Part shown: piece after piece, positions 11,648 to 44,784 of the stretch | Layout: every line of letters begins with the position of its first letter | Position numbering within the stretch: the first letter of the stretch is position 1 | NCBI GenBank assembly: GCA_013151045.1 | Contig: JAADIY010000007.1 | Location: 8,095 to 72,094 of the forward strand | DNA from: Gammaproteobacteria bacterium | Lineage (GTDB): Bacteria; Pseudomonadota; Gammaproteobacteria; GCA-2400775 | Direction of reading: 5' to 3' | DNA: 64,000 nucleotides | Notes under the pieces: generated by a model | Databases searched by the model: none | What the model saw: only the letters and a program-made list of their open reading frames with translations | What the model was told of the DNA's origin: nothing | Program-made: the position numbers and the translations under genes

Positions 11648-11683
11648 GGCCTACAGCACATAGCTTAAATCGTCACGTTTGCT

Positions 11684-11709
11684 GCGCCTTATTTGGCCAA
11701 ATAAGGCGC
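11684..11709. repeat. 26-bp perfect palindrome (GCGCCTTATTTGG|CCAAATAAGGCGC) between ahcY and metF
   Basis: Exact self-complementary sequence read directly; no U-tract on either strand, so not a canonical terminator. Confidence 0.6.
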
Positions 11710-11820
11710 AAGAAGAGAAAACTAGTGATTCTAAATAAACGACAAGCAACGCTGGATGGGCAAATTCGGTCGCCCCGTTGCTATAATCTAAACTGGACTA
11801 ACAAGCCCTAGGAAACAAGC

Positions 11821-12660: not shown

Positions 12661-12676
12661 GCAATAGCTAGACCCT

Positions 12677-13414
12677 ATGGCCAAACATAGACTTTATATC
12701 CCGAACAATCTTAGCGCCAACGCCACGCTAACACTGGACGCGGCAACCATTCATTACGTGCTTAATGTATTACGTCTACGTGATAATACAGAAATTGAGG
12801 CCTTTGACGGGCAGGGAAAATCTTATTCAGCTAATCTATGCATCAAGGGTAAACGCGATGCAGAATTAGTCACCAGCAATGAAGTTTTCTCTAGTACTGA
12901 ATCGCCCTTAAAAATTGAACTGCTACAAGTCTTATCCCGCGGTGAAAAAATGGATTGGACCATCCAGAAAGCCGTCGAACTCGGCGTCTCCTCTATTCGC
13001 CCTCTGACTAGCGAGCGTTGTAACGTCAAACTAGACACAAAGCGTTTACAAAGCCGTTACCAACACTGGCAGGGAGTCATCAATAGCGCTTGCGAGCAAT
13101 GTGGACGCAATGTAGTGCCTACATTAAAGCATTTGTTAGATATTACAGAACTGGCCAATGAAAATATTATTGCATCTGATCATCAATGGCTACTGCACCC
13201 TGAAGCAGAAGATTCACTAACAGAAAACAAGCTCGCGAAGATCAAATCTGTCGGTCTCTTGATCGGGCCCGAAGGTGGCTTCAGCAATAACGAAATTCAT
13301 CTATTGAGTCAATCAGGCTTTAAACAAAAATGTTTTGGCCCACGCGTTTTACGTACGGAAACTGCCGCTATCGCGGCAATAGCTGCAATACAAAGTCGAT
13401 GGGGTGACATGTGA
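12677..13414 (+). CDS. rsmE: 16S rRNA (uracil1498-N3)-methyltransferase RsmE
   Basis: 245 aa; C-terminal LIGPEGGFSNNEI...GPRVLRTETAAIAA knot-MTase motif. Confidence 0.85.
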   Translation: MAKHRLYIPNNLSANATLTLDAATIHYVLNVLRLRDNTEIEAFDGQGKSYSANLCIKGKRDAELVTSNEVFSSTESPLKIELLQVLSRGEKMDWTIQKAVELGVSSIRPLTSERCNVKLDTKRLQSRYQHWQGVINSACEQCGRNVVPTLKHLLDITELANENIIASDHQWLLHPEAEDSLTENKLAKIKSVGLLIGPEGGFSNNEIHLLSQSGFKQKCFGPRVLRTETAAIAAIAAIQSRWGDM

Positions 13415-13455
13415 AAGAGAGCGATAAGAGAGCCTTGAGAAATGACTGAGAGAAA

Positions 13456-14424
13456 TTACTGATAAAGCGCATTCAGCTGTTGTGCTAAATTTACCGGCGA
13501 TGCAACGGTAAGGCGGCTATCATTACAATCCTCTGCCAATTGTACGAAACTACCTGATAAGTCTTTATGTAGCCACACTTTCCCACCTGCATCAAAAATC
13601 CGCCTACAACCCGCCATGCCATCTTCACCTATCGCACTAAACACAATCGCTCCTGCCTTACTTCCATAGCGCTTAGCGACTACTGTCATCATCTGATCAT
13701 ACATTCGGTCGCAAGGCGAAATACTGTTTGGTAAGAGTTTATCCTTATCATCAATGGAAAAACATTTGCCATCGGCAATCAGCACTATAGAACCGTCGCG
13801 CAAAACGGTACCCTCTCTCATCGCTACGATAGAGTAATCTGTACAATGTTTTAGGTGGTTCGCCAACACATCAAGATGCTCTTCTGCTATACGCTGCATA
13901 ACAATAAAGCTGACTGGCAAACTCGGAGATAAAGCGCTAAAAAATTCTCGCAATGCTTCAGGCCCACCAAGCGAACCACTAAGCAGCCAGACATTCCCAG
14001 ACATTCCTATCTGATCAACCTCATATGCATCGGGCTTAGATGCATCGCTATCAACAGTAAAATCGTCCTTATCGGCAACCGGTTTTAGCTGAACAGCACT
14101 TAACACTTCAGCTAATTTATCGTTTAAGCGTTGCGACCAATTTGCGTCTTGCGAAGAATCATTAAATAAAACGGGGCGAACTTCTATACTAACGAGCTCA
14201 TTGAGGTGTGCTAACTGATAGTTATCTGCGCCATCAAGATCAACAACAATGGCATTGGCGTCATAGAATAGATTTGCACCTTCGGCACCATCAATCTGGC
14301 TATTGGACAATACCGCACTCTGACTTATTATCCAGCCGCACTGTTCAAGTGGCTCAGACAATCGCTGAACCGCCTCTGGTTTACACACCAGTAATCCTAA
14401 TCTATTCACAGCTTGTGTTGACAT
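13456..14424 (-). CDS. chpB: ChpB-like chemotaxis methylesterase (CheB catalytic domain with degenerate N-terminal receiver-like domain)
   Basis: 322 aa; C-terminal LSGSLGGPEALREFFSAL...FIVMQRI...LIADGK resembles the CheB Ser-nucleophile region; position last in the pilG-pilI-pilJ-chpA cluster. Confidence 0.65.
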   Translation of the reverse strand: MSTQAVNRLGLLVCKPEAVQRLSEPLEQCGWIISQSAVLSNSQIDGAEGANLFYDANAIVVDLDGADNYQLAHLNELVSIEVRPVLFNDSSQDANWSQRLNDKLAEVLSAVQLKPVADKDDFTVDSDASKPDAYEVDQIGMSGNVWLLSGSLGGPEALREFFSALSPSLPVSFIVMQRIAEEHLDVLANHLKHCTDYSIVAMREGTVLRDGSIVLIADGKCFSIDDKDKLLPNSISPCDRMYDQMMTVVAKRYGSKAGAIVFSAIGEDGMAGCRRIFDAGGKVWLHKDLSGSFVQLAEDCNDSRLTVASPVNLAQQLNALYQ

Positions 14425-14526: not shown

Positions 14527-17500
14527 TCAGTCATTATCCATGAGACGTGTAACGATCTCATAAAGCTCTTCATCACGATACGGCTTATTCAACCACGCCG
14601 CAATATTGTACTGCCGTGACTGCTCTTCATCATATTCGCTAGCGCTGATCAACACTACCGGTAAGTCACGATACTCTGACTTTGCGCGCAAGCTCTCAGC
14701 CAATTCGAGGCCACTCATTTTTGGTAACTGTAAATCAGATAGCAATAAATCTATTTTTATTCGATTAGATAGTTCAAGCGCTTCCTCAGCAGTCTTGGCA
14801 ATTTTTACTTGGTAGCCATAACCCTCCAACACTTTCTCGCAGTAGCGTCGCATAGTCAGCGAATCGTCGACTAGCAAGATAGTTTTTCTGATCACAGCAG
14901 ACGCTTCATTGCTTGTGTGATTCCCATCAGAAGAATGATTCAATTCAAGAAAGAATACGGGGTTTAATATCGGCACCAAACCACCCTCTTCAAGCAAACC
15001 TATTCCAGCCAAATAATCAGCATGCTTTAATTGATTACTCCGCTCTCCACTCAGAATGTTTTCGCTACCTTCAACAGTATCAACAATCAAAGCAAATCGA
15101 GCATTATCATCATTCAGCAATAGCGCCTGCTTATTAGTGTTGTCATGAGATTGGCTTTCAATCTGTAGCAATTCTCCTAACTGACCACACTCGTACACTT
15201 TGTCACCAACAGACAGTGTCTTCTCAACATTATTCGCGTCAACGGCAATAACATCTATTTGTCCTGGCAAAGCGAAACGCTGACCAGCGACCGTGATAAT
15301 TGTGGCCGGCATCAAAGCAGCCGAATAAGGCAAACACAAGGTAAAGCAAACGCCTCTACCAAATTCATTGCTGACCGAAATTGTTCCACCCAGCTCTTCT
15401 ATTCCTGCTCGTACTGCGTTAAGACCTACGCCTCTTCCCGATACTTGAGTGACTTGCGTCTTCGTTGAGATGACACCGTCAAATAATAAATCAATCGCCT
15501 TTTCTTCACTATAAGGCTCATCATCTCTAACTAAGTTTTGCTTTAGCGCTTTACGCCATATTCGACGCGTATCAATACCCGCACCGTCATCGGCAATAGC
15601 AATGGATATACCTATAACACCAACCGAGCAAGCTAAACGAATCGCAGCACGCGCTGGCTTCCCTGCGTTCAATCGTATCTCTTCTGTCTCAATACCGTGA
15701 TCAACCGCATTACGTAATATATGGCCTAATATTGCTGAGATACGGCGCAACATCACACGATCAAATTTAATCTCTGTATCGCCAATATATAAAGCAACGT
15801 TCTTCTCTAGCTGTGCTGAAGTTTGCTCAACCAAGCGCTGATACTTATTCGCATCAAAGCCAATTCCAACCATGCGCGCATCAACTAGCGACTGGCGTAT
15901 AAAAGACGTCGCCGCTGACATGTCATCAAGACGAGTCTCTATATTACCGACACGACGCAGCACTTGATTCGTCGCCAAACGCATATCACTTATTGCTTCA
16001 GCCAAACGTACTTTTTGATCCGATGATGTTGAACTATCATCGAGCTCTGACGACAAACGATAAATAGTCCCATCAAGCTCAGCAACTACTGCCATGGCAT
16101 TGCTCACTTCATCAAATAACGCAGTTTGTCCAACAAGCTCTTCAGCATTAAGCTGAAATAAGCGATGCAACTGGGCATCACTTATTTGAAAATGATCTTC
16201 ATTACTTTCTGTTGAAATGATGATAGGTTCAGAGACATCTTTATTAGCAACTCCAGCTGTTTGCTCTGACACTACGTTCGAGTGATTTTGAGCAACTTCA
16301 TTATCACTCGATCTCGACGTGAACCCAAGCATATGGCGCATGCTATCAATAGATTGCTCAAACGAATCTATTAACTGTGGTGACGACGGCAATAATCCAG
16401 ATTGGATAGACGACAACATCGACTCTAAGCCATGACATAAATCGCCGATATCTCGATACCCAGCCACTAACGAACTGCCTTTGAGCGTATGCAGCGAGCG
16501 TTGCAAGGCATTTATAGACTCATCAGCACTATCAGAAGAGTGCCAACGCGCTAATTGTGCAACCATCTCATCAAGTAGCCCCGAAGCTTCTTGGGTAAAG
16601 CTCTCGACAATATCCAAATCAACATGTTGACTAATAGTAGTAATATTAACCGAACGTTGACTCTCCTCCTTTTCATCAGGTTCGGGCGCATCATCTACGA
16701 TACCTTGATCCGACAGCGACAATAAATCTGAAGTTTCAAGCAACGAATCAAAGTCATCTAATAAATTTTCAGTTTCTTCGATAAACTCATTCACCGGCAT
16801 CGGTGCTTCGTCATTAGTTGCTTCATGCAATGTCAATTTATTGCTATCTACTGCGGCGTGTTCCAAATCAAGCTCAGCAAAGCGGGTTTCTGACAACTGC
16901 AATAAGCTTTCAACATTTAACGACATCGCGGCACGCGCTTGTGTAATCTCATCCAACGAACACGCCAGCGCAGCAACCCCTTCGGCAAAGGTCATATAGC
17001 GATTAGTATCTAAATCCCGAACGCTCTCATTGGACTCCCCGCCCGATGTACTTTGCAATTCCACAAGATAGCTTTGCGCGCTCGCACATAATTCTCTATG
17101 TTTGTCTAAACCAACAAGTTCAAAACAACGCATAACACGATAGCTAATATCATAGGCATGAGACAAGGCATTAGGGTTGGCTGATTGATCTCGCAACCAT
17201 GCTTCTAGAACTTGCTCCATGCTTGCTAATTCATGTCGGCATTCGGCCAAGGCCTGACGCGTGGAATCATCTTTGAGAGCAGATAGATCATCTAATGGTT
17301 GTCTACTGCCATTGGCCAAATCCTTTATCTTGCGGCCACGCCCACTACGGCGGTCGCGTAGACCATAACGGCCTAATATTCCTAATACACGCTCACTATG
17401 CTGATAAGCATTGGTGGCTATATGGAAAAGCGCTTCTTTAGTTAGCGCTGTCGGCACGTAAGCTGTATCAGAAACTGCCAATTGTCGAATGTAACGCTCG

Positions 17501-18210
17501 ACATGGGCCAACAAAAGCCGCACTGATTGGCTGACCTGTGAACAACCACGCTGCGAATCTATCAGCGCTGCAATCACTTCAAAAAACTGGATATGTGGCC
17601 GTTCCACTGCTGCCAACCTCAAGCTATCTGTAATGGCAACCAGAACATTAATTGAATCAGGGTTCTCACAATCCTGATACCAGGCTAACAGCGCAGCCTG
17701 AAACTGATGTGCCTGTGTTTTCGCTGCCTCGATAAACTTATCTAAAGTTGCATGGAGATTTTGATTCACTGGCACAACATCAAGATCAATGGTGTGCACC
17801 TCGCTTGCGGTAACAATCTGAGCACCACGCTGCTCACGCAAGGTATTTATGACAGTCAACAAATGGTAATTCATATCTGCCGTAAGCGATGGCTTCTGCA
17901 CTGCTTCATCTAGCTCGACCAGGGCATCTTTAACCAACATTAAAACAGCAACTTTTTTAGCACCTTGCGCACCCGCAGCAACTGCCAAGGCCTCGCCAAG
18001 CTCTCGCGCCAGCAATGCAGATGCTTTGCTGGCGAGCATACTCAATGCACCGCTAACGCGTTTCAGCTCTAGCGCAAAGCCCTCTAGCTCTGCAACCGAC
18101 AAACACTCCTGTTTATCAGTGACGAGCTGTCGGCATGCCGCAATTATTTGCAATAATTGACGGCCAACTTCATGCTCTGCAATGAGGCAATTGCTGTGTG
18201 AATCCGTCAT
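14527..18210 (-). CDS. chpA: ChpA-like hybrid CheA histidine kinase (Hpt, HATPase, CheW-like, C-terminal REC)
   Basis: 1227 aa; Hpt motif HTLKGSSLVAGYRDIGDL, HATPase SGRGVGLNAVRAGIEELGGTISV, C-terminal receiver LLVDDSLTMRR...DLLLSDLQLPKMSG. Confidence 0.85.
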   Translation of the reverse strand: MTDSHSNCLIAEHEVGRQLLQIIAACRQLVTDKQECLSVAELEGFALELKRVSGALSMLASKASALLARELGEALAVAAGAQGAKKVAVLMLVKDALVELDEAVQKPSLTADMNYHLLTVINTLREQRGAQIVTASEVHTIDLDVVPVNQNLHATLDKFIEAAKTQAHQFQAALLAWYQDCENPDSINVLVAITDSLRLAAVERPHIQFFEVIAALIDSQRGCSQVSQSVRLLLAHVERYIRQLAVSDTAYVPTALTKEALFHIATNAYQHSERVLGILGRYGLRDRRSGRGRKIKDLANGSRQPLDDLSALKDDSTRQALAECRHELASMEQVLEAWLRDQSANPNALSHAYDISYRVMRCFELVGLDKHRELCASAQSYLVELQSTSGGESNESVRDLDTNRYMTFAEGVAALACSLDEITQARAAMSLNVESLLQLSETRFAELDLEHAAVDSNKLTLHEATNDEAPMPVNEFIEETENLLDDFDSLLETSDLLSLSDQGIVDDAPEPDEKEESQRSVNITTISQHVDLDIVESFTQEASGLLDEMVAQLARWHSSDSADESINALQRSLHTLKGSSLVAGYRDIGDLCHGLESMLSSIQSGLLPSSPQLIDSFEQSIDSMRHMLGFTSRSSDNEVAQNHSNVVSEQTAGVANKDVSEPIIISTESNEDHFQISDAQLHRLFQLNAEELVGQTALFDEVSNAMAVVAELDGTIYRLSSELDDSSTSSDQKVRLAEAISDMRLATNQVLRRVGNIETRLDDMSAATSFIRQSLVDARMVGIGFDANKYQRLVEQTSAQLEKNVALYIGDTEIKFDRVMLRRISAILGHILRNAVDHGIETEEIRLNAGKPARAAIRLACSVGVIGISIAIADDGAGIDTRRIWRKALKQNLVRDDEPYSEEKAIDLLFDGVISTKTQVTQVSGRGVGLNAVRAGIEELGGTISVSNEFGRGVCFTLCLPYSAALMPATIITVAGQRFALPGQIDVIAVDANNVEKTLSVGDKVYECGQLGELLQIESQSHDNTNKQALLLNDDNARFALIVDTVEGSENILSGERSNQLKHADYLAGIGLLEEGGLVPILNPVFFLELNHSSDGNHTSNEASAVIRKTILLVDDSLTMRRYCEKVLEGYGYQVKIAKTAEEALELSNRIKIDLLLSDLQLPKMSGLELAESLRAKSEYRDLPVVLISASEYDEEQSRQYNIAAWLNKPYRDEELYEIVTRLMDND

Positions 18211-20225
18211 GACTCGACCTTCTGTTGCGAATCATTTTCAGCAACAACATTGACCTGAGTAGCAATAAGCTTATCCAACTTCCTAACACATAGGTCACTT
18301 TCTGTCGCCGCCACTAACAAACGCTGGTTACCATCTTGCAACTCATCCAAAACTAAGGATATAGTTTCTGTATGCCGCGCCTGCGAACGATCTGCTCCGG
18401 CAATTGCACGGGCAAACTCTGACGTACTTACATCGACCTTATTAACCTTACTTAGAACACTAGATTGAAAATGGTCAAAAAGCTCTGGAACACCTTCAAT
18501 TTTTTCTATTTGTTGTAGTAACGAACTCATGCTCGATGTCATATCAACCAGCAACTGCATAATATCGTTAACCTGACCGTGATAACGCCCTGTTAGCGAC
18601 TGCAAGGACTCCATCGCCCTGCGCACAGCTCGATCACTACCCGGCCTACCCGCTAATGACGTACTGGTATCAATGACTTCTAGATTAATGCGTTGTGACA
18701 ATTTGGCTAAGGAGTGCAATCGATCATCAATGTGCTGCTGTAACTGACGCACAGCATGCGCGGTAATATCTGTTGAACCACCTTTTTCACTATCCGACAA
18801 TTGCAATGCTGCCTGATCAATATGTTGAATTAGCGATTGTAACTGTGATTGGGTCTGCACTAGATGACCCGCTAATTCAGTTGAAGCAGAAGTCTGCCCA
18901 GAGACTATATTACTTAGCCCAACACTCAGGCGCGCGATATCATTTGCTTGGCGATCAATAGTCGCCACCATACCCGCCTCGGCCTTAGCCAAGCCTTTGA
19001 CTAATGGCAAAAAGTCTTTTTCTATTTGCTTATCAAGCAAACCTACATAAGCTACCATTCGATTAGCCTGACCTGCCAAATGCCGACAATTTATCGATTC
19101 AACACGCACAGTAATCGCATGATCGCCTTCAGAAAAAGCCGCCATCTGCCTAGAAATATTATCAATCCCTTCCTGCGTGCTATCTTTTTCAATAGATAAG
19201 CTGACTCTTTCAGCATCCACCGTTCGCACATGACAATAAGCCATATACAACAGCCACAACATGACTAATGCAATAGCAAAATATAGCGACAACCGTTCTT
19301 TAGTGAAACCCTTGGTTAACTGTAGTCGATCTTTTACCAACTGCTGAACTGGCGTTATTAGTAAGCCACTGTCCTCAACAAGCAATTGCACATGCTTATT
19401 AATATCCTGGGTCACAACAAGAGAGCCCATCACTTTACGAATACTAATAGCCAACTCCGCCAAACGTTGTGCTATCGCATTAATTTTCAATAATAGTGAG
19501 ACATCTGAACCATCTTGCTTAGCCTCCTCTAAAGCCTCTTTGTTATCCACAGACATAATCTCGAGACTTTTTTCTAGCAAGAACAAATCGGCTTCTATCG
19601 AACTTGTCAGGGCCGCGCGCGCATTGACATTAACTGCACTCAGTACACTGGCTGTCGCAGCATTGGTATTAGCCGCCATTCGTTGTAAAATGATGCGCTG
19701 CTCACGCAGCAATCTCAAACTTGCTGGTTTTCTTAAAGCGACGCGCAATTCATCTATAACAAGATTATGTTCAGTTAATACATCTGGAAGACGCTGATCT
19801 GTATCTTCAACAGCAATTCGTAGATCAGACAATTTGTCCTTGCTTGACAACAAACCCATTACTGCCTCGCGCACTGGCTGCCAAATATCGCTTAGCTGTT
19901 TAAATGTCTGCCACGAATCACTAACATCTTTTTGATAACTAGGTCTCAACACATCTAAGCCTTGCTGATAGCCCTCAACACTTGATGCCAGTTTTTCAAA
20001 TGCATTCAGCTCGAGCTGACTAATAGCAACCGCATGACTTGCCATTAAGGCTGATTGCGCATTAAGGCTGAATAATTGCTCAACATGAGCTTCGCTCTCT
20101 GCGCCTTGTTGATGTAAGAACCAAGCCGCTACACCCACCTGCAATAGCAAAGCTATTAGCAAGGCTACGTGCCAACGCTTATTACCGTTGAACAACGTTA
20201 ACAGATAATGAAAAAAATCATGCAT
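18207..20225 (-). CDS. pilJ: PilJ-like transmembrane chemoreceptor (MCP-like architecture; signalling domain divergent)
   Basis: 672 aa; two TM segments flanking a ~270-aa periplasmic domain, post-TM region resembling PilJ (MAAFSEGDHAITV), long coiled-coil cytoplasmic domain; sits between pilI and chpA. Confidence 0.6.
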   Translation of the reverse strand: MHDFFHYLLTLFNGNKRWHVALLIALLLQVGVAAWFLHQQGAESEAHVEQLFSLNAQSALMASHAVAISQLELNAFEKLASSVEGYQQGLDVLRPSYQKDVSDSWQTFKQLSDIWQPVREAVMGLLSSKDKLSDLRIAVEDTDQRLPDVLTEHNLVIDELRVALRKPASLRLLREQRIILQRMAANTNAATASVLSAVNVNARAALTSSIEADLFLLEKSLEIMSVDNKEALEEAKQDGSDVSLLLKINAIAQRLAELAISIRKVMGSLVVTQDINKHVQLLVEDSGLLITPVQQLVKDRLQLTKGFTKERLSLYFAIALVMLWLLYMAYCHVRTVDAERVSLSIEKDSTQEGIDNISRQMAAFSEGDHAITVRVESINCRHLAGQANRMVAYVGLLDKQIEKDFLPLVKGLAKAEAGMVATIDRQANDIARLSVGLSNIVSGQTSASTELAGHLVQTQSQLQSLIQHIDQAALQLSDSEKGGSTDITAHAVRQLQQHIDDRLHSLAKLSQRINLEVIDTSTSLAGRPGSDRAVRRAMESLQSLTGRYHGQVNDIMQLLVDMTSSMSSLLQQIEKIEGVPELFDHFQSSVLSKVNKVDVSTSEFARAIAGADRSQARHTETISLVLDELQDGNQRLLVAATESDLCVRKLDKLIATQVNVVAENDSQQKVES

Positions 20226-21412: not shown

Positions 21413-22720
21413 ATGAGCATAGAAAACCTGCACGCAGTGCCCAATCTCACTACAGTATTGACCGGTCCACTACGTGAAATTGAGCAACATCTGCTCAACC
21501 AGCAAGCTTCGATAGAAAACTGGTTTCGCAATCAATGGCGCAAAACACCTGCGCCTTTTTATGCTTCCGTAGATTTACGTAACGCTGGGTTCAAGCTCGC
21601 ACCTGTCGACACCAATCTGTTTCCCGCTGGGTTTAACAACCTTAACCCCGCTTTTATGCCACTGTGCATCCAAGCGACCCAGTCAGCGCTAGAACAAATC
21701 TGCCCAGATGCCAACAATGTACTTATCGTCCCTGAGAACCACACCCGTAATACGGCTTATTTTGAGAGCCTGGCCATGTTACAAAACATTCTCAGCAAAG
21801 CCGGTTATACGGTAAAAATTGGCTCTATTAATCCTGAAATTACTGAGATACAGACTCAAAAACTTGCCTCAGGTGATGAGTTAACACTGCATCCGTTGAC
21901 ACGCATTGGCAATAAAGTTTCAGTAGAGGGCTTTGAACCCTGCCTCGTGTTGCTCAATAACGATCTCTCCGGCGGCACACCTGAAATTCTCGAAAATATT
22001 GACCAAACCATTATTCCACCGATGCGCTCAGGTTGGGCCCATCGATTAAAATCGGGGCACTTCGGTCACTATCAACAAGTTGCCGAGTCATTTGCCGAGC
22101 AAATCGGCATTGACTCATGGCTAATTAACCCGCTGTTTACCACCTGCGGTGAAATCAACTTCATGAAACGCGAAGGCGAAGATTGCATCGCTCACAACGT
22201 CGGTAATTTACTCAAGGCAATTCAAGCAAAGTACGATCAATACGGTATTGAAGAAAAACCCTTTATCATCGTCAAAGCCGACGCCGGCACCTACGGCATG
22301 GGTATTATGACCATACATTCAGTTGAAGAAGCACGCGAACTTAACCGCAAACAACGTACTAAAATGTCAAAGATCAAAGGCGGACAGGCGGTCTCTAAAG
22401 TGATCTTACAAGAAGGCGTCTATACTTTTGAAAGCTGGGGCAATGAACAAGCTGTCGCCGAACCTGTCGTCTATATGCTCGACCATTTTGTCGTTGGCGG
22501 TTTTTATCGTGTGCATACAGGTCGTGGTCGCACAGAAAACCTCAATGCTCCAGGCATGCACTTTGAACCGCTAGCCTTTGCCGAACCATGCAATTCGCCA
22601 GATGAAAAAATGTCTCCCGACGCTTGTCCAAATCGATTTTATGCCTACGGTGTTATCGCTCGCCTAGCGCTACTCGCCGCCGCTCGTGAAATCGACGAAC
22701 TAAAACGCAGCGACGCTTAG
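21413..22720 (+). CDS. gshA: glutamate--cysteine ligase (short proteobacterial GshA family, probable)
   Basis: 435 aa; immediately upstream of and co-directional with gshB (9-bp gap); recalled similarity to the ~430-aa non-E.coli GshA family; family assignment from memory only. Confidence 0.55.
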   Translation: MSIENLHAVPNLTTVLTGPLREIEQHLLNQQASIENWFRNQWRKTPAPFYASVDLRNAGFKLAPVDTNLFPAGFNNLNPAFMPLCIQATQSALEQICPDANNVLIVPENHTRNTAYFESLAMLQNILSKAGYTVKIGSINPEITEIQTQKLASGDELTLHPLTRIGNKVSVEGFEPCLVLLNNDLSGGTPEILENIDQTIIPPMRSGWAHRLKSGHFGHYQQVAESFAEQIGIDSWLINPLFTTCGEINFMKREGEDCIAHNVGNLLKAIQAKYDQYGIEEKPFIIVKADAGTYGMGIMTIHSVEEARELNRKQRTKMSKIKGGQAVSKVILQEGVYTFESWGNEQAVAEPVVYMLDHFVVGGFYRVHTGRGRTENLNAPGMHFEPLAFAEPCNSPDEKMSPDACPNRFYAYGVIARLALLAAAREIDELKRSDA

Positions 22721-33432: not shown

Positions 33433-34020
33433 ATGACTATGACTAGCAGCAAAACTTACCCAAATATGAACCCTTCGAGCTGGCTCGACGATTATGGCGA
33501 TGAGTTATATCGCTATGCCTTAGCCCGCTTGCGCGACAAATCTGCGGCCGAAGATGTCGTACAAGAAACGCTACTCGCTGCACTCAAAGCACAAGAGAAT
33601 TTCCGTGGTGATTCGGCTGTTAAAACATGGTTAATCGGCATCATGAAATTCAAGATCATCGATTTTTATCGTAAATCTGCTCGTGAAATCCAAAGTGAAA
33701 GCTTAGAACACACTTTATCCTCTTCTGAAGATAATGATTTTGACGAAAATGGCCGTTGGCTAACAGCGGTTAATAGCTGGTCTGACCCTGATTTAGCCTT
33801 GCATCAAGATCAGTTCTTTGCTGTCTATCAGAGTTGCATCGACGCCCTACCCGAAGATCAAGCAAAGCTATTTGTTCTCAACGAGACCAGTGATCTGAGC
33901 AGCGAAGAATTATGCAAGATAATAAATATCTCTACGACTAATAATCTCTGGGTAATTTTATCACGGACAAGGAAGCGCCTGAGAGACTGTATTGATAAAA
34001 ACTGGTTTAACGCGGAATAG
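33433..34020 (+). CDS. RNA polymerase sigma-70 factor, ECF subfamily
   Basis: 195 aa; region 2 (DVVQETLLAALKA...FKIIDFYRK) and region 4. Confidence 0.8.
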   Translation: MTMTSSKTYPNMNPSSWLDDYGDELYRYALARLRDKSAAEDVVQETLLAALKAQENFRGDSAVKTWLIGIMKFKIIDFYRKSAREIQSESLEHTLSSSEDNDFDENGRWLTAVNSWSDPDLALHQDQFFAVYQSCIDALPEDQAKLFVLNETSDLSSEELCKIINISTTNNLWVILSRTRKRLRDCIDKNWFNAE

Positions 34021-34022
34021 AT

Positions 34023-34274
34023 ATGCTGTCATGTAAGCAAGTATCTGAATTATCAGCTCGCGCAAAATGTGAAGGACTAAGTTTTAGCGATAGAATAAAG
34101 CTTAAGTACCATATGATGATGTGCAAGGGATGCCAAACCTATCATCAGCAAATTAACCTACTACAACAAGCCACTGCAAAACTATTCAACAAGCCCACGG
34201 GGGGCGATACACTCTGCAAAGAAGCCCGTGAGCGTATCAAACAAAACTTAAAATCCGACAAATCGAAAGACTAA
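34023..34274 (+). CDS. zinc-finger (zf-HC2 / ChrR-like) anti-sigma factor
   Basis: 83 aa; H-x3-C-x2-C motif (HMMMCKGCQTYH); 2 bp downstream of the ECF sigma gene. Confidence 0.6.
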   Translation: MLSCKQVSELSARAKCEGLSFSDRIKLKYHMMMCKGCQTYHQQINLLQQATAKLFNKPTGGDTLCKEARERIKQNLKSDKSKD

Positions 34275-37330: not shown

Positions 37331-37376
37331 GCGTCTTTTGCGGAGTTCTCGGGGCTTGCCCCGAACAAAAGCACGC
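37331..37376. repeat. REP-like nested hairpin element
   Basis: GCGTCTTTTGcggagttctCGGGGcttgCCCCGaaCAAAAGCACGC: inner 5-bp GC stem inside an imperfect ~10-bp outer stem. Confidence 0.35.
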
Positions 37377-37636
37377 TATAATAGCCAAGCAACGGCGGCG
37401 CAGCAACTTTTGCTACTCGCAACCCAGCTTATCGTTCAACCATAACGCACTGGTAAGCCATCGCCTCGCACTGGAGTCAAAAGACCAATCACGATAATAT
37501 CGTCAGTAATTAAAACTTATTACGACTATGTGACACAGGTACAACAAGCTTCTTATAGCCTTGAACTACCATGTATCATGGGCTGACTCCCAGCACCGAC
37601 TGTATTTCAAGACCACTCGTATTCACTGAGGAAACA

Positions 37637-38602
37637 ATGCATCCTACCCTGCCACGACTCGAAAAAACTGATTTCCCTGCGCTTCGCCGTGGCACCCTTG
37701 AAACAGTACAAGTCAACGTCGGCTATCTGTGCAACCTAAGCTGTATCCACTGCCATGTTAACGCCGGGCCCGCTCGCAAAGAGATCATGACTCGAGATAC
37801 TGTCGACGAAATCCTCCAATACTTACAAGTCTGTGGCGCCAAAACGCTTGATCTGACAGGTGGCGCGCCTGAAATGAATCCTGATTTTCGCTACTTCGTC
37901 AAAGCTGCCCGCGACCTAGGTCTAGAAGTCATTGACCGCTGCAACCTGACTATATTGTCTGAACCAGGCTATGAAGGTACCGCTGAGTTTTTGGCTGAAA
38001 ATGGCGTCACCGTCGTTGCCTCACTGCCTTGCTACTCAGAAGACAATGTCGACGCACAACGTGGCGATGGTGTGTTTGATGGCAGCATCAAGGGCTTACA
38101 GATGCTCAACGCACTAGGTTATGGCCAAACCGATGGCGACTTAGTTCTCGATCTTGTCTACAACCCACAAGGCGCGACACTGCCGCCATCACAAAAAGAA
38201 TTAGCAGCAAATTATCATCACTATCTTAAGGCACAATTCGGCGTGGTGTTCAATCAACTCTATACTGTCGCCAATATGCCTATTAAACGTTTTGGTAGCA
38301 TGCTAATTTCTAACGGCACGTTTGACGGCTATATGGATTTGCTGCGCTCAGCACATAACAGTGATAACGTCTCTTCTGTCATGTGCCGTAGCTTGATCAG
38401 CGTTGACTGGAAGGGCTATGTCTATGATTGTGATTTCAATCAAATGCTTGATTTACCCTTAGCAAATGAAACCAAGCGCGCACATATCTCGGACTTAATA
38501 GATACAGACCTAAAAGGTCAAAACATAATTGTAAAAAACCACTGCTACGGATGTACTGCTGGACAAGGCAGTAGCTGTGGTGGTGCTCTTGATGCCGCGT
38601 AA
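37637..38602 (+). CDS. arsS: radical SAM / Cys-rich 'selenodomain' protein (ArsS-like, TIGR04167-type)
   Basis: CNLSCIHC (C-x3-C-x2-C) radical SAM motif near the N-terminus; C-terminal CYGCTAGQGSSCGG Cys-rich tail; start chosen at ATG with GAGGAAA RBS (alternative upstream ATG at 37571). Confidence 0.75.
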   Translation: MHPTLPRLEKTDFPALRRGTLETVQVNVGYLCNLSCIHCHVNAGPARKEIMTRDTVDEILQYLQVCGAKTLDLTGGAPEMNPDFRYFVKAARDLGLEVIDRCNLTILSEPGYEGTAEFLAENGVTVVASLPCYSEDNVDAQRGDGVFDGSIKGLQMLNALGYGQTDGDLVLDLVYNPQGATLPPSQKELAANYHHYLKAQFGVVFNQLYTVANMPIKRFGSMLISNGTFDGYMDLLRSAHNSDNVSSVMCRSLISVDWKGYVYDCDFNQMLDLPLANETKRAHISDLIDTDLKGQNIIVKNHCYGCTAGQGSSCGGALDAA

Positions 38603-38650
38603 TTTAATCACTTAACATTAATACAGTTAATAGACTTTGGAGCTTAAATC

Positions 38651-39724
38651 ATGAATATGCAGTCTGCCGTTCTTTCAACCTATTCTGACGGTGCAAAAGA
38701 GGTTCAAGCCGAACTTTGTTGTCCTGTAGATTACGACACCAGCTTGCTAAAAATGTTGCCACAAGAAATTATTGAAAAAGACTATGGTTGCGGCGACCCC
38801 TCGCGCTATGTCCGTGAAGGTGACACGGTTGTCGATCTAGGCAGTGGCGGCGGAAAAATCTGCTATATGGCTGCACATCTCGCTGGCGAAAACGGAGAAA
38901 TCATCGGCGTCGATATGAACGATGACATGCTTGGTCTCGCACGTAAATACCAAAGCGAAATGGCTAAAAAAATTGGTGGTGACCGCGTCCGTTTTGTTAA
39001 AGGGCATATCCAAGATCTCGCTTTAGATCTCGAAGCGCTCGACAAATACTTGACTGCAAACCCAGTCAACAACGCTGATGCTTATCACGATTTAATCGCA
39101 TGGAAATCAAAGCAGCGTAATGAAGCACCATTAATCGCTGACAACTCTGTTGACCTTGTTATCTCCAACTGTGTACTCAACCTTGTTAGTGATGCTGAAA
39201 AAATACAGCTCATCAATGAAATCTTTCGCGTACTCAAACCTGGCGGCCGTGTCGCAATTTCAGATATCGTTAGCGATGAATATGTGCCCGACCACTTAAA
39301 AGCTGATCCAAAGTTGTGGAGTGGTTGCATCTCAGGCGCCTTCCAAGAACAAGAATTTGCCGACGCCTTTATCGACGCTGGTTTCGTTGGAGCTTGCTAT
39401 GACAAATGGGATACTGCGCCATGGCAAACTGTCGAAGGCATTGAATTTCGTTCGGTCACGCTGACCGCGAGCAAGCCACTGGTTAGTAATGATGACACCG
39501 TGCACGAAGTAATCTATCAAGGCCCATTTGCTGAAATTTGCGATGACTACGGCAACATTTTTGTCCGCGGTGAAAAAACGCCTGTTGATGCAGAAAGTTG
39601 CGCAGCATTATTCAGTGGCGCTTACCAAAACTTATTCACCGACTGTAACGTGCCCTTGGGCTACAGTGCAGAAAGTAGCGGATGCTGTGCTCCTGCTGCA
39701 AATGAAAAGAGTAGCTGCTGTTAG
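38651..39724 (+). CDS. arsM: ArsM-like SAM-dependent (arsenite) methyltransferase
   Basis: SAM motif VVDLGSGGG; Cys pattern matching the ArsM catalytic cysteines (ELCCPVDYD, SNCVLNLV, WSGCISGA); C-terminal Cys-rich tail SSGCCAPAANEKSSCC. Confidence 0.75.
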   Translation: MNMQSAVLSTYSDGAKEVQAELCCPVDYDTSLLKMLPQEIIEKDYGCGDPSRYVREGDTVVDLGSGGGKICYMAAHLAGENGEIIGVDMNDDMLGLARKYQSEMAKKIGGDRVRFVKGHIQDLALDLEALDKYLTANPVNNADAYHDLIAWKSKQRNEAPLIADNSVDLVISNCVLNLVSDAEKIQLINEIFRVLKPGGRVAISDIVSDEYVPDHLKADPKLWSGCISGAFQEQEFADAFIDAGFVGACYDKWDTAPWQTVEGIEFRSVTLTASKPLVSNDDTVHEVIYQGPFAEICDDYGNIFVRGEKTPVDAESCAALFSGAYQNLFTDCNVPLGYSAESSGCCAPAANEKSSCC

Positions 39725-39759
39725 ACCGTAGCTAACCAAACTCTGTTATTAAACCCATC

Positions 39760-40437
39760 GTGCGTATCGCTGTTATTGTCCCGTGCTTAGACGAGGCAAG
39801 GCATATCGTCTCGATGCTTTCGCGCTTACAATACTTACGCCAAAATGGCCATCAACTCATCGTTGTTGATGGCCAGAGCACTGATGAAAGCGTTGCTCTA
39901 GCAACGCCACTAGCTGACGATGTTGTCAGCCATCAACGCGGTAGAGCGCTACAACTGAATCATGGCGCGCAAATCACCAATGCCGATATCTTGCTGTTCC
40001 TACACGCTGACACTCAACTGCCCGACAATGCTGACACACTGATTATTGAACAACTGGCAAAGTCAAAACGTCAATGGGGACGGTTTAACGTACGCCTAAG
40101 CGGCAAACACTATTGGCTACGAGTCATCGAATTTATGATGAACACACGTTCGCGCTGGAGCGGTATTGCCACAGGCGATCAGGCTATTTTCGTTGATCGC
40201 GAATTATTCAAAAAAGTTGGTGGCTTCCCGGAAATTTCGCTCATGGAAGACATTTGTCTTTGCAAACACCTTAAACCTTATTCAAAACCGCTTTGCTTAA
40301 GTGAGCCTGTCATCACATCGAGCAGACGCTGGGAAGAAAAAGGCATATGGCGAACCATATTATTAATGTGGCGTCTACGTCTCGCCTACTTCCTTGGTAT
40401 CGACACTAAGCAACTCAAACGTCAATACGACAATTAG
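39760..40437 (+). CDS. GT2-like transferase, rSAM/selenodomain-associated family (transferase 2)
   Basis: 225 aa; GT-A N-terminus IAVIVPCLDEA...VVDGQSTDES, DxD-like LHADT; position after arsS-arsM. Confidence 0.65.
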   Translation: MRIAVIVPCLDEARHIVSMLSRLQYLRQNGHQLIVVDGQSTDESVALATPLADDVVSHQRGRALQLNHGAQITNADILLFLHADTQLPDNADTLIIEQLAKSKRQWGRFNVRLSGKHYWLRVIEFMMNTRSRWSGIATGDQAIFVDRELFKKVGGFPEISLMEDICLCKHLKPYSKPLCLSEPVITSSRRWEEKGIWRTILLMWRLRLAYFLGIDTKQLKRQYDN

Positions 40438-40455
40438 AACTCTTTAAAAAACTCT

Positions 40456-41115
40456 ATGGTAGCGCCAACAACAAACGATTCAACATCGAATGAAGCCACT
40501 ATTATTGTTTTTGCTAAAGCACCCGAACCCGGCAAAGTTAAAACACGATTGACGAGTAAACTGACACCAGAACAAGCCGCGACATTGCATCAACAGCTGG
40601 CACTACGCACCATTGCGATGACGACACTGTCAACCGTAGCCAAAGTAGAGTTATGGTGCGCACCCAATACAACACACAGTTTCTTTACACACTGCATGCA
40701 AAATTACCCTCTAACACTGCATCAACAAGTTGGCGATAACCTAGGACAGCGCATGCATAACGCCATCAGTAATGTTCTAACGCGAAGCAAACACTGCCTA
40801 ATCATTGGTACAGATTGCCCGCAACTAACTCTGCCACACCTAGACAATACATTTTCACTATTAAGCAGCGAAAATGATTGCGTCATCACCCCCGCTACTG
40901 ACGGTGGCTATGTCATGCTCGGACTCAAGCAATGCGATGAAAAACTATTTGATAATATCGAATGGGGCACTGGGTCTGTCTATGAAACAACACTAACACG
41001 ATTGCAATCACTTTCTTGGCGCTGGCTACCACAACCCGCATTAAACGATATTGATCGCCCTAGCGACTTGCATCTACTACAAAACATTGATTTACCTACA
41101 CCTATTTCCTTTTAG
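40456..41115 (+). CDS. DUF2064 / CofC-like nucleotidyltransferase-fold transferase, rSAM/selenodomain-associated family (transferase 1)
   Basis: 219 aa; IIVFAKAPEPGKVKTRL N-terminal motif typical of DUF2064/MobA-like fold. Confidence 0.65.
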   Translation: MVAPTTNDSTSNEATIIVFAKAPEPGKVKTRLTSKLTPEQAATLHQQLALRTIAMTTLSTVAKVELWCAPNTTHSFFTHCMQNYPLTLHQQVGDNLGQRMHNAISNVLTRSKHCLIIGTDCPQLTLPHLDNTFSLLSSENDCVITPATDGGYVMLGLKQCDEKLFDNIEWGTGSVYETTLTRLQSLSWRWLPQPALNDIDRPSDLHLLQNIDLPTPISF

Positions 41116-41179
41116 CTTATATTTGCACTAAGCACTGCTTGATTTCTTTCAACAATCGACTATAGTAGCCACCTCAAGT

Positions 41180-41475: not shown

Positions 41476-41481
41476 ATAAAA

Positions 41482-43458: not shown

Positions 43459-44001
43459 ATGGGCAATCGACTCACCAAGATATACACTTGCACCGGTGAT
43501 GATGGCAGCACAGGTCTTGGCGACGGCACACGCGTTAGCAAGGATCACATGCGTGTCGACTGTTACGGCAGTACTGATGAAACCAACGCTCAGATTGGTG
43601 TTGTGTTAACACACAATATTCCTGGCGAGGTCAGCACATGTTTATCTGCGATACAGCACCGCCTATTTGATTTAGGCGGTGAGCTATGCATCCCAGGGCA
43701 TACTATTTTAACCGCGGAACATGTCACGCAACTTGAAGAACAAATAGATGCATTCAATGAAAACCTTCCGCCACTAAAAGAATTTATTCTCCCTGGTGGC
43801 AATGCTGCTGGCGCTCATTGCCATGTCGCTCGAACCGTATGCCGACGTAGCGAGCGGCTACTCGTCACGTTAAGCAAAGAAGAAACTATTAACCCTCATG
43901 CACTAAAATATCTAAATCGCTTGTCTGACTTACTATTTGTTATCGCCCGCGTGCTAACACGCGCCGATGGCAGCGACGAAGTCTATTGGACACGCGATTA
44001 A
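43459..44001 (+). CDS. cobO: ATP:cob(I)alamin adenosyltransferase, PduO type
   Basis: 180 aa; KIYTCTGDDGSTGL N-terminus characteristic of PduO-type adenosyltransferases. Confidence 0.85.
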   Translation: MGNRLTKIYTCTGDDGSTGLGDGTRVSKDHMRVDCYGSTDETNAQIGVVLTHNIPGEVSTCLSAIQHRLFDLGGELCIPGHTILTAEHVTQLEEQIDAFNENLPPLKEFILPGGNAAGAHCHVARTVCRRSERLLVTLSKEETINPHALKYLNRLSDLLFVIARVLTRADGSDEVYWTRD

Positions 44002-44016
44002 GCAGAGAACTCAGCA

Positions 44017-44784
44017 ATGAAACAAGCAATAGTAACGATTGGCATAGGCGAAATTGGTAGTGTAATAGCACGTGGTTTTTTACGTCTCGGTCATCCTGTT
44101 TATCCTGCCACTCGTTCGAGCAAAATTGATGAGCTTGCCAGCGCTATTGATCCAGCATTAGTTATTGTTGCTGTCGGCGAAAATGATTTGCAAACGACTC
44201 TTACTAAACTACCCGATCAATGGCGTGACCGCGTTGTATTGCTGCAAAATGAATTGCTCCCTAGCAGCTGGCTACCACACCAACTGATTGATCCCACCAT
44301 CATTTCTATCTGGTTCGAAAAGAAAAAGGGCCAAGACAGCAAAGTGCTCATTCCTTCACCTGCGTTTGGGCCACACTCAACACTATTACAACAAGCTCTC
44401 GCTTCACTAGATATTCCGGTAAACCAGATCAACAACAAAAACGATCTGCTTTTTGAATTGGTGGTAAAAAATCTCTATATCGTTACCACTAATGTCGCTG
44501 GTTTAAAAGTAGGTGGTAATGTGGGCGAGCTACAAAAACATCACGAAACACTTATGCGTGATATCGCTAATGAAGTATTGAGCATTCAAGAAATATTAAC
44601 TGGCAGCACTTTCAACAACGATGCATTAATTGCTGCAATGCAAAAAGCGATGGATGCTGATCCCGAACACAAATGCATGGGCCGCTCTGCGCCGACTCGC
44701 TTAAAGCGTGCGTTAGCTCAAGCTGCCGAGTCTAATTTAGCCGTACCCACCTTGCAGAGTATTGCTGAGCTAACCGCCGAATAA
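44017..44784 (+). CDS. uncharacterised NAD(P)-binding Rossmann-fold protein in the B12 operon
   Basis: 255 aa; N-terminal IVTIGIGEIGSVIARGF dinucleotide-binding motif; 15 bp downstream of cobO; no recognisable cob/cbi family. Confidence 0.45.
   Translation: MKQAIVTIGIGEIGSVIARGFLRLGHPVYPATRSSKIDELASAIDPALVIVAVGENDLQTTLTKLPDQWRDRVVLLQNELLPSSWLPHQLIDPTIISIWFEKKKGQDSKVLIPSPAFGPHSTLLQQALASLDIPVNQINNKNDLLFELVVKNLYIVTTNVAGLKVGGNVGELQKHHETLMRDIANEVLSIQEILTGSTFNNDALIAAMQKAMDADPEHKCMGRSAPTRLKRALAQAAESNLAVPTLQSIAELTAE

Follow-up and report, generated by a model that had tools for sequence, protein, structure and literature searches.

The four adjacent genes at positions 37637-41115 of the window (the whole stretch of DNA analysed here, 64 kb in length, from an uncultured gammaproteobacterium) raise the question of what they make together, and from which element. 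Our analysis indicates that they most likely convert arsenite to arsenic-containing ribosides, and that they represent an operon type which is already catalogued and whose last two steps are as yet putative. The initial annotation had regarded the system as undescribed, a view that is out of date, since NCBIfam release 20 and PGAP name all three families TIGR04167, TIGR04282 and TIGR04283 'arsenosugar biosynthesis' proteins, and genome papers reuse these names. The 'glycosyltransferase' in the family name of TIGR04283 is itself an annotation.

Coordinates and gaps agree with the earlier description of four co-directional, tightly spaced genes. According to the ORF listing of the window, all four lie on the + strand, encoding the radical SAM protein ArsS (37637..38602), an ArsM-like methyltransferase (38651..39724), a GT2-like glycosyltransferase (39760..40437) and a DUF2064/CofC-like protein (40456..41115). 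The intergenic gaps measure 48, 35 and 18 bp, no + strand terminator lies inside the set, and a cobalamin riboswitch at 41170, between the set and the downstream B12 genes, opens the next transcription unit together with its own promoter-like site. Because of this layout, and because the gene order recurs and the GT2 and DUF2064 genes accompany ArsS in other loci, the four genes constitute a single real operon. As had been described, the operon is flanked upstream by pntAB on the minus strand (Pfam annotation from the syntenic loci L164 and L165) and downstream by B12-uptake genes, namely a TonB-dependent receptor and a PduO-type adenosyltransferase. The reported lack of arsenic genes nearby was also borne out, with no arsR, arsC, acr3 or arsB among the annotated genes within ~8 kb in L164 and L165, no classical ars operon partner among the 10 window ORFs checked, and, as far as partial annotation covers the 64 kb, neither a nucleosidase nor any ars resistance gene.

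Two blocks upstream of the operon are shared by the window, L164 and L165. The first, GCTATAATAGCCAAGCA (37375..37391, + strand), is nearly invariant within an intergenic region that has otherwise diverged; with TATAAT at 37377-37382 it is a low-confidence candidate for the -10 region of the operon, and a simple sigma-70 scan made no call there. The second, TTACGACyATGTGA (37520..37533, + strand), sits ~100 bp upstream of arsS and, judging from its conservation, is possibly a regulator site.

Although the longest arsS ORF opens at 37571, we placed the start at 37637 because homologues all begin MH(A/P)TLPRLE and a ribosome-binding site, GAGGAA, immediately precedes this position. The resulting 321-aa protein carries the Pfam domains Radical_SAM and DUF3641 (189 bits for the latter) and matches the TIGR04167 equivalog at 463.5 bits (cut-off 300, E 2.8e-139, profile 2-303/303). 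The cysteines of its cluster motif CNLSCIHC (C32-x3-C36-x2-C39 in the 321-aa numbering) are invariant, and its C-terminal HCYGCTAGQGSSCGG is invariant among 20 homologues. The protein is 100% identical to one from an NCBI Gammaproteobacteria MAG and 98% identical to one named ArsS by PGAP. Other members of the family are described as converting DMAs(III) to DDMAA in vitro (PMC13598754; bioRxiv 10.64898/2026.04.29.721666), and in Synechocystis arsS is co-transcribed with arsM. From its equivalog membership we infer that the window enzyme would likewise cleave SAM reductively and couple the 5'-deoxyadenosyl radical to DMAs(III), yielding DDMAA.

Relatives of ArsS are present in no fewer than 598 species genomes, and the core conserved across loci consists of ArsS, GT2 and DUF2064. 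In a proteobacterial sample of 48 fully flanked species loci, GT2 accompanies ArsS in 33 and DUF2064 in 32, and a methyltransferase adjoins ArsS in ~11 (about a quarter). Of the four 'rSAM/selenodomain-associated' families named in the initial annotation, TIGR04167, TIGR04282 and TIGR04283 stand, while the methyltransferase does not belong with them. The order of the four genes is met again in other genomes (L001, L010, L070, L084, L093, L109, L118, L164, L165). A DedA-MerA-like fusion accompanies the trio in 25 of the 48 loci; since most genomes have this fusion and the window lacks it, the minimal cassette may not be self-sufficient.

What becomes of DDMAA would depend on the two transferases, which, like ArsS, exceed their curated equivalog cut-offs, in agreement with the proposal of an arsenosugar-type organoarsenical system. 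The 225-aa GT2 protein, which has a GTG start and the Pfam domain Glycos_transf_2, scores 272 bits against TIGR04283 (cut-off 182, E 3.5e-81), with D37, D42, H82-x-D84, D140 and E163-D164 invariant. The solved folds nearest to its AlphaFold2 model (pLDDT 93.5) are the inverting GT2 enzymes WrtF, PcManGT, ArnC, TarS/TarP and DPMS, and several of the inverting GT-A enzymes that the model resembles take lipid-phosphate or polyol-phosphate acceptors. All of these structural neighbours share < 20% identity with it, so donor and acceptor cannot be read from them. Arsenosugars are beta-ribosides, the expected product of an inverting glycosyltransferase acting on an alpha-linked NDP-sugar, and the model leads us to predict that GT2 is an inverting transferase making such a beta-riboside.

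The 219-aa DUF2064 protein (Pfam DUF2064) scores 204 bits against TIGR04282 (cut-off 134, E 1.8e-60). Its motifs GxxKTRL (26-32), GxDCP (118-122) and DGGY (149-152) are kept in 35 ArsS-linked homologues, and the KTRL and DxP motifs are, we take it, typical of MobA/CofC-type nucleotidyltransferases. The sole PDB relative is 3cgx, a 'putative nucleotide-diphospho-sugar transferase' (E 9e-18); the structure model (pLDDT 31) does not confirm the fold. We predict from these motifs that the protein is a nucleotidyltransferase that would activate arsenoribose-1-phosphate.

Additional evidence on the later steps comes from genes for methylthioadenosine phosphorylase (MTAP), which lie <= 8 kb from ArsS in 7 of 79 loci against ~0.4 expected in a test that ignores phylogeny. 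The linkage is found mainly in Burkholderiales (including Cupriavidus) and also in Psychrobacter. In Cupriavidus sp. KK10, for instance, genes for the methyltransferase, an AhpD-like protein, ArsS, a DedA-oxidoreductase, GT2, DUF2064 and MTAP are co-directional and follow one another in this order, and the MTAP scores 276.2 against TIGR01694 (cut-off 274.85). Since MTAP genes reside inside the cluster in these other bacteria, we propose that an MTAP-type enzyme encoded outside the window would remove adenine from DDMAA phosphorolytically to give 5-deoxy-5-dimethylarsinoyl-alpha-ribose-1-phosphate. On the strength of its fold family and motifs, the DUF2064 protein would then join this arsenoribose-1-phosphate to an NTP, forming NDP-arsenoribose, from which GT2 would move the arsenoribosyl group with inversion to a glycerol-type hydroxyl, generating the beta-riboside of natural arsenosugars; the acceptor is perhaps, speculatively, a membrane lipid such as phosphatidylglycerol. 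We put forward these specific roles for MTAP, DUF2064 and GT2 tentatively, as a proposal that falls a little short of probable.

The main competitor is a different division of labour, in which, for instance, DUF2064 activates the acceptor or some other phospho-acid (as CofC does with 2-phospholactate) and GT2 uses a conventional NDP-sugar, or in which hydrolysis removes adenine and the ribose is coupled by another route. The DUF2064 protein does match CofC weakly (39.9 bits), the TIGR04283 protein weakly resembles GpgS and MftF in its N-terminal part, and most cassettes are without MTAP, including that of the window, where a search of the 64 kb did not find it. The 2026 preprint treats events after DDMAA in general terms only, stating just that 'adenine can then be removed' (bioRxiv 10.64898/2026.04.29.721666). 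Against this, several independent arrangements have MTAP inside the cluster, and the beta-linkage fits an inverting enzyme with an alpha-linked NDP-sugar, leading us to regard such other roles as rather unlikely. In line with the earlier remark that a biochemical role has been proposed for the first two proteins only, we found no experimental paper on TIGR04282 or TIGR04283 in the literature searched.

The preferred route to ribosides also calls for a source of DMAs(III), for which the 357-aa methyltransferase is the candidate. Its Pfam match is Methyltransf_31, and PGAP labels it only 'methyltransferase domain-containing protein'. In contrast to the other three proteins, which passed their models, it reached none of the curated ArsM cut-offs, so that on this point the HMM check set out in the initial annotation goes against it: the best NCBIfam model (E 1.1e-111), NF040538 for arsinothricin ArsM, gave 373.4 bits in one full-length stretch (cut-off 500), PRK11873 for general arsenite methyltransferases 186.1 bits in two stretches with an insertion between them (cut-off 263), and NF038099 (AsSugarArsM) 115.1 bits (cut-off 400). 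It aligns with CmArsM structures (E 2.5e-33), C23/C24, C47, C174 and C226 matching CmArsM C44, C72, C174 and C224. The catalytic cysteines noted in the initial annotation are therefore kept, whereas their spacing of 24/127/52 is that of BgArsM (Cys30/54/181/233) and not of CmArsM; an insertion of ~25-30 residues is likewise common to BgArsM. The enzyme belongs to a large unnamed clade which, in a rough NJ tree, has arsinothricin ArsM as its sister, and of its 128 members 127-128 keep each of C23, C24, C47, C174 and C226 and a terminal CC, the counterparts of the four catalytic cysteines being invariant in all 128. A member that is 51% identical is part of an ArsR-permease-methyltransferase unit adjoining arsRBC on the S. 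aureus plasmid pSA159. The invariance of the ArsM catalytic cysteines and this ars context point to arsenic as the substrate. Given the conserved residues and the known behaviour of ArsM, we predict that this BgArsM-type enzyme would add two methyl groups from SAM to As(III) at its four-cysteine site, producing DMAs(III).

The same resemblance admits a reversed, arsinothricin-like order, in which ArsS adenosylates As(III) or MAs(III) and the methyltransferase then methylates the alkyl-arsenical, the end product being unchanged. BgArsM methylates the product of its own radical SAM partner, and the model match, cysteine spacing, insertion and tree all tie the window enzyme to arsinothricin ArsM. 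However, DMAs(III) is the shown substrate of ArsS, and the methyltransferase is just 42.9% identical to an annotated arsinothricin ArsM. Moreover, the Staphylococcus plasmid member occurs with ArsR and a permease and without a radical SAM partner, suggesting that it acts on inorganic arsenite. We therefore judge the reversed order improbable. The arsinothricin partners ArsL (a radical SAM protein with an RCCLKC tail) and the ArsQ permease have no match among the four proteins, the radical SAM member being ArsS.

Less probable still is that the methyltransferase is a stand-alone arsenite-detoxifying methylase that lies in the operon by chance, with ArsS, GT2 and DUF2064 working independently. 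The adjacency of a methyltransferase to ArsS in only about a quarter of the fully flanked loci would accord with this, as would the occurrence of the clade without ArsS, alone, beside a DedA-oxidoreductase only, or in the ArsR-permease-methyltransferase unit. Yet ArsS requires a methylated arsenic substrate and has a member of this clade beside it in 41 of 80 metagenome loci, with either gene coming first; in the lineage of the window, moreover, the four genes stand close together and in synteny (L164, L165). Finally, a seleno- or stibio-riboside made from Se, Sb or Te appears most improbable of all: some ArsS/ArsM-like family members are selenoproteins by their NCBIfam names, a TIGR03169 'Nterm_to_SelD' oxidoreductase and a YciW-like (seleno)protein neighbour the cassette in other genomes, and ars resistance genes are absent near that of the window, but an enzyme's selenocysteine tells nothing about its substrate, ArsS exceeds its equivalog cut-off by a wide margin, and the methyltransferase clade keeps all four arsenic-binding cysteines and has members in bona fide ars contexts.

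We are accordingly quite confident of the methyltransferase and ArsS steps and of the overall identity of the operon, and only slightly less so that the four genes act as one operon making dimethylarsinoyl-riboside ('arsenosugar'-type) compounds from arsenite.

Its closest counterpart is the arsM-arsS arsenosugar pathway of Synechocystis sp. PCC 6803, reportedly described by Xue et al. in 2019. As there, a TIGR04167 ArsS adjoins a methyltransferase with ArsM cysteines, probably co-transcribed, and the predicted chemistry runs from As(III) through DMAs(III) to DDMAA. Unlike Synechocystis, the window has a BgArsM-like enzyme with an insertion rather than AsSugarArsM, holds both TIGR04283 and TIGR04282 in the operon, and comes from a non-phototroph whose closest named relative is a MAG of the Thiotrichales. 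With arsQ-arsL-arsM of Burkholderia gladioli and Pseudomonas it shares a C-As-forming radical SAM enzyme and an insertion-bearing ArsM of the same cysteine spacing, but the window ArsS, whose DUF3641 tail ends GGALDAA, is predicted to transfer 5'-deoxyadenosyl whereas ArsL transfers ACP, and ArsQ and an above-cut-off NF040538 match are missing. In comparison with the usual trio, which is present and adjacent as in most of the sampled proteobacterial loci, the cassette includes a methyltransferase within the operon, as only a minority do, and is without DUF547 and DUF3047, which, like the DedA-MerA-like fusion and MTAP, are frequent companions elsewhere. The pairing of a MobA/CofC-like nucleotidyltransferase with a transferase recalls CofC/CofD and the polyprenyl-phosphate GT2 enzymes DPMS, ArnC and GtrB. 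In GT2, the GT-A catalytic domain leads into amphipathic helices at the C-terminus that resemble the interface helices in DPMS and ArnC. It differs from DPMS, ArnC and GtrB in having no transmembrane helices, and its sequence is < 20% identical to that of any enzyme characterised so far.

Among the major arsenic species of marine food webs are arsenosugars and arsenosugar phospholipids, and just the ArsM and ArsS steps of arsenosugar biosynthesis have been shown so far. Cassettes of this kind, the window being one among many, place two candidate downstream enzymes beside ArsS, and the versions with MTAP, from Cupriavidus and Psychrobacter strains that can be cultured, make the pathway concrete and testable; they also bring to light a large clade of BgArsM-like arsenic methyltransferases left unnamed by curated models. 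Bacteria have been suggested in the literature as an overlooked source of ocean arsenolipids, and the cassette gives this suggestion a genetic basis. It is possible, if doubtful, that the cassette and a housekeeping MTAP form the complete route from DDMAA to arsenosugars that has long been sought, in which DUF2064 would make NDP-5-deoxy-5-dimethylarsinoyl-ribose and GT2 would transfer its arsenoribosyl group to the head group of a membrane lipid. In that case the arsenosugar phospholipids, which dominate the arsenolipids of the surface ocean, would have abundant uncultured marine gammaproteobacteria among their direct producers, alongside algae and cyanobacteria.

The cassette consists of four co-directional genes on the forward strand, encoding ArsS (37637-38602), a methyltransferase (38651-39724), a GT2 protein (39760-40437) and a DUF2064 protein (40456-41115), with gaps of 48, 35 and 18 bp between the called ORFs. 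The longest ORF for arsS begins at 37571; since ArsS homologues share the residue coded at 37637 as their first, and a GAGGAA ribosome-binding site lies just 5' of the ATG at that position, the start of 37637 proposed in the initial annotation is right, as is its description of a tightly spaced, co-directional block. A consensus scan of the + strand found neither promoter nor terminator within the four genes. Searches against NCBIfam placed ArsS in TIGR04167, the arsenosugar biosynthesis radical SAM (seleno)protein ArsS (463.5 bits, cut-off 300), GT2 in TIGR04283 (272 bits, cut-off 182) and DUF2064 in TIGR04282 (204 bits, cut-off 134), in agreement with Pfam (Radical_SAM plus DUF3641, Glycos_transf_2 and DUF2064, respectively). 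The scores bear out the original naming of these proteins as ArsS-like, GT2-like and DUF2064/CofC-like. The 'rSAM/selenodomain-associated' label that had been attached to all four families is the former label of the three models (JGI names) and does not extend to the methyltransferase, which lies outside that set. NCBI now names the three models 'arsenosugar biosynthesis', and a sister MAG, a Thiotrichales bacterium with a 98% identical ArsS, already carries arsenosugar names in GenBank, so that the cassette is not, as had been supposed, undescribed. It belongs to an already annotated class, and what it adds is an uncurated methyltransferase variant.

Horizontal acquisition was rejected, as GC across the cassette (0.45-0.47) is the same as in its surroundings, and in two close relatives (L164 and L165) synteny holds at 78% protein identity; both have the exact four-gene order with pntAB and btuB on its flanks. 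No plasmid matched the cassette in a Megablast search. Between pntA and arsS, two blocks are kept in three genomes, GCTATAATAGCCAAGCA at 37375-37391 and TTACGACyATGTGA at 37520-37533, with a spacer that has otherwise diverged; judged from this conservation, they may represent a promoter -10 region and an operator. Further upstream, an ECF sigma factor gene (33433-34020, + strand; TIGR02943, 188 bits, cut-off 162) is followed by a gene for an 83-aa anti-sigma factor (34023-34274, + strand), which carries an HxxxCxxC zinc/thiol motif and lacks an evident membrane segment. In L164 and L165 the two genes likewise stand 3.3 kb upstream of arsS, and 8 of 48 fully flanked loci from other genomes have an ECF sigma homologue near ArsS (211 bits for the one in L006). 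The promoter region of the sigma gene and the sequence upstream of arsS had no conserved 7-8 base k-mer in common, and the pair was therefore dropped as a cassette regulator and remains an unproven association.

Directly past the last cassette stop codon lies a cobalamin riboswitch (RF00174, 41170-41380, + strand, 111.6 bits in Rfam), preceded by a promoter-like site (41139-41166) and followed by genes for a TonB-dependent receptor, a PduO-type adenosyltransferase (43459-44001) and cobC/cobD-like proteins. With this riboswitch and a promoter-like site of their own, the downstream genes therefore form a separate B12-regulated unit, and the cassette ends at 41115. A functional tie between the two was rejected on these grounds and because other lineages have a different neighbourhood. 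As the mechanical ORF start of the receptor, 41317, falls inside the riboswitch, its true start is probably an internal Met near 41479. The B12-salvage operon has an unannotated member, a 255-aa ORF between the adenosyltransferase and cobC-like genes (44017-44784, + strand), which had no NCBIfam match at E 1e-10; its 257-aa counterpart in L165 occupies the same position and has no Pfam match. A 672-aa ORF at 18207-20225 (- strand) likewise had no NCBIfam match at E 1e-10. The housekeeping genes of the window encode adenosylhomocysteinase (10220-11647, + strand), a TIGR02049-type glutamate-cysteine ligase (21413-22720, + strand), a ChpA/CheA-like hybrid kinase (14527-18210, - strand), transketolase and pyruvate kinase, a context consistent with a core chromosomal region.

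An ArsS alignment, searched against GTDB with each species represented by a single genome, confirmed ArsS relatives in at least 598 species genomes. The best 80 of these are all Proteobacteria and include the cultured carriers Pseudomonas peli, Psychrobacter nivimaris, Marinobacterium arenosum, Roseateles puraquae and Methylotetracoccus oryzae. ORFs called in the ArsS loci were searched with the window proteins and the remainder clustered; the tallies cover the 48 loci with full flanks and exclude shadow ORFs in high-GC loci (clusters c1, c4, c6, c16 and others). The conserved core is ArsS, GT2 (TIGR04283-like, 33/48) and DUF2064 (32/48), and an adjoining methyltransferase is a minority feature, being of the window type in six loci and a canonical-like ArsM in five. 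The exact four-gene order also occurs in Thiohalobacter sp. IOR34 and six further loci (L010, L070, L084, L093, L109 and L118). The commonest extra neighbour (25/48) was a protein of ~715 aa in which a DedA/VTT membrane domain is fused with a MerA/lipoamide-dehydrogenase-like FAD disulfide oxidoreductase bearing a CxxxxC site (L022 5696-7843, - strand; L047 8738-11095; L167 10750-12995; many others). A possible role for this fusion is the reduction of organoarsenicals or disulfides at the membrane. Less frequent were the unannotated family c11 (11/48), DUF547 (10/48), DUF3047 (9/48), an SSF-like transporter (6/48) and methylthioadenosine phosphorylase (MTAP, 4/48); none of these accessory families, the fusion and TIGR03169 included, occurs in the 64-kb window. 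The TIGR03169 'Nterm_to_SelD' oxidoreductase (6/48), of pyridine-nucleotide-disulfide type (L082 13624-15093, 411 bits against 310; L077, L030 and others), and a recurring AhpD/YciW-related '(seleno)protein' (for example L167 9159-9755) hint at a thiol/selenol redox link. On a Tara contig (L002) the cassette is split (10917-14250 and 15939-17131), in the order VTT/DedA-ArsS-methyltransferase-GT2, pstSCAB-like phosphate ABC transporter, ECF sigma, anti-sigma, fatty-acid hydroxylase and DUF2064, an arrangement that ties the system to phosphate uptake and to the modification of lipids.

MTAP linked to ArsS (TIGR01694, 326 bits, cut-off 274.85) lay within 8 kb of it in 7 of 79 loci, against ~0.4 expected (binomial 1e-7, ignoring phylogeny in a mostly Burkholderiales set), and in four of these it stood immediately upstream in the same orientation. 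Such clusters include L030, L024, L048, L065, L077 and L167, the last from the cultured strain Cupriavidus sp. KK10 (chromid/plasmid p1, NZ_CP073678.1, 6783-15187), where eight co-directional genes encode a PiT-like permease, window-type methyltransferase, AhpD/YciW-like protein, ArsS, DedA-oxidoreductase, GT2, DUF2064 and MTAP. From a 5'-substituted adenosine, MTAP-type enzymes release adenine and form the corresponding 5-substituted alpha-ribose-1-phosphate, and the ArsS product DDMAA is itself a 5'-substituted adenosine. Elsewhere it has been shown that ArsM methylates As(III) and that ArsS joins 5'-deoxyadenosyl to the resulting DMAs(III) to give DDMAA (PMC13598754; bioRxiv 10.64898/2026.04.29.721666). 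On the step after DDMAA, the latter, a preprint of 2026, goes no further than to state that adenine 'can then be removed'. We propose that MTAP would phosphorolyse DDMAA to arsenoribose-1-phosphate, that DUF2064 would convert this to an NDP-sugar and that an inverting GT2 would transfer the arsenoribosyl group to a glycerol-type hydroxyl, forming a beta-riboside. Natural arsenosugars have the beta-riboside configuration. More speculatively, were the acceptor a lipid, for instance phosphatidylglycerol, the transfer would yield an arsenosugar phospholipid directly.

Of the two transferases (TRANSFERASES), GT2 was modelled with a confident fold (pLDDT 93.5, 48-sequence alignment), and its nearest solved structures are the inverting GT-A/GT2 enzymes WrtF, PcManGT, ArnC, chondroitin polymerase, TarS/TarP and DPMS (E 1e-12 to 1e-8, TM ~0.65, identity <20%), with the retaining MpgS and GpgS ranking below them. 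Its invariant acidic residues (D37, D42, H82-x-D84, D140 and E163-D164) stand at what we take to be the putative nucleotide-binding, metal-binding and base positions expected of GT2 enzymes, and three predicted C-terminal amphipathic helices (189-224) resemble the interface helices of lipid-phosphate GT2 enzymes. For DUF2064, the PDB offers a single relative, 3cgx, a structural-genomics entry named 'putative nucleotide-diphospho-sugar transferase', and the match to CofC is weak; the motifs GxxKTRL, GxDCP and DGGY are kept in 35 ArsS-linked homologues, and a single-sequence AlphaFold2 model (pLDDT 31) was discarded. The searchable literature yielded no experimental characterisation of TIGR04282 or TIGR04283. 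Roles for the two transferases other than those proposed are unlikely, while still a real prospect.

The methyltransferase (METHYLTRANSFERASE) scored best with NF040538, arsinothricin biosynthesis methyltransferase ArsM (373 bits, cut-off 500), and was also below the cut-offs of the general arsenite methyltransferase (186 bits, cut-off 263) and cyanobacterial AsSugarArsM (115 bits, cut-off 400) models. Because the curated ArsM cut-offs are missed, PGAP names the enzyme and its relatives 'methyltransferase domain-containing protein'. Two stretches of it, separated by an insertion of ~30 residues, aligned with the crystal structures of CmArsM (E 2.5e-33), pairing C47, C174 and C226 with C72, C174 and C224 of CmArsM. 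An exact copy of the protein is present in the protein collection searched, and exact-sequence searches for it in the contig index gave no match. Across 128 aligned clade members, C23, C24, C47, C174 and C226 are invariant and 127 members have a C-terminal -CC. The C23/24-C47-C174-C226 spacing of 24/127/52 differs from that of CmArsM (28/102/50) and equals that of BgArsM, the arsinothricin-type enzyme of Burkholderia gladioli (Cys30/54/181/233; PMC8552651). An annotated arsinothricin ArsM from a Pseudomonas amygdali arsQ-arsL-arsM cluster is 42.9% identical, and was sister to the whole window-type clade in a rough neighbour-joining tree without bootstrap, which held one arsinothricin sequence and canonical-like ArsMs as the outgroup. 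On sequence grounds, the enzyme is predicted to be ArsM-like in mechanism and lies outside every curated ArsM equivalog; its initial assignment as ArsM-type thus held for the catalytic cysteines and the structural alignment, but not for the model scores.

The BgArsM-like spacing brings up a reversed order, in which ArsS would act first and a BgArsM-like enzyme would methylate afterwards; we regard this as improbable. The ArsS-ArsM logic of the cassette is that of Synechocystis. A methyltransferase functionally independent of ArsS, GT2 and DUF2064 we find very unlikely. A metagenome scan with the methyltransferase alignment gave at least 594 matches, and in the best 80 loci ArsS adjoins the window-type enzyme in 41, in both gene orders, and the DedA-oxidoreductase fusion adjoins it in 32, sometimes with ArsS absent nearby. 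A substrate besides arsenic is scarcely credible: a 51% identical methyltransferase on Staphylococcus aureus plasmid pSA159 (L166, NZ_CP090408.1, 5687-8056), annotated 'methyltransferase domain-containing protein', belongs to an ArsR/SmtB-permease-methyltransferase unit adjoining arsRBC, which speaks independently for arsenic as the substrate. Recombinase and transposase genes flank the unit, so this BgArsM-like clade is mobile among Gram-positive pathogens.

Arsinothricin clusters resemble the cassette in pairing a radical SAM enzyme with an insertion-type ArsM; in contrast to them, the cassette has neither ArsL nor ArsQ, and its methyltransferase falls below the arsinothricin model cut-off. 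As an observation, the organo-metalloid (arsenosugar-like) cluster of the initial annotation is confirmed, its families being of the arsenosugar type, while the interpretation is supported in part only. Among the arsenolipids of the surface ocean, arsenosugar phospholipids predominate, and the occurrence of ether-linked forms has suggested a bacterial source (bioRxiv 2021.03.22.436501). Cassettes of this kind, present in MAGs of marine gammaproteobacteria, are plausibly the genes behind such a source. Ordinary as an annotation, the cassette is a useful entry point to the downstream arsenosugar steps.
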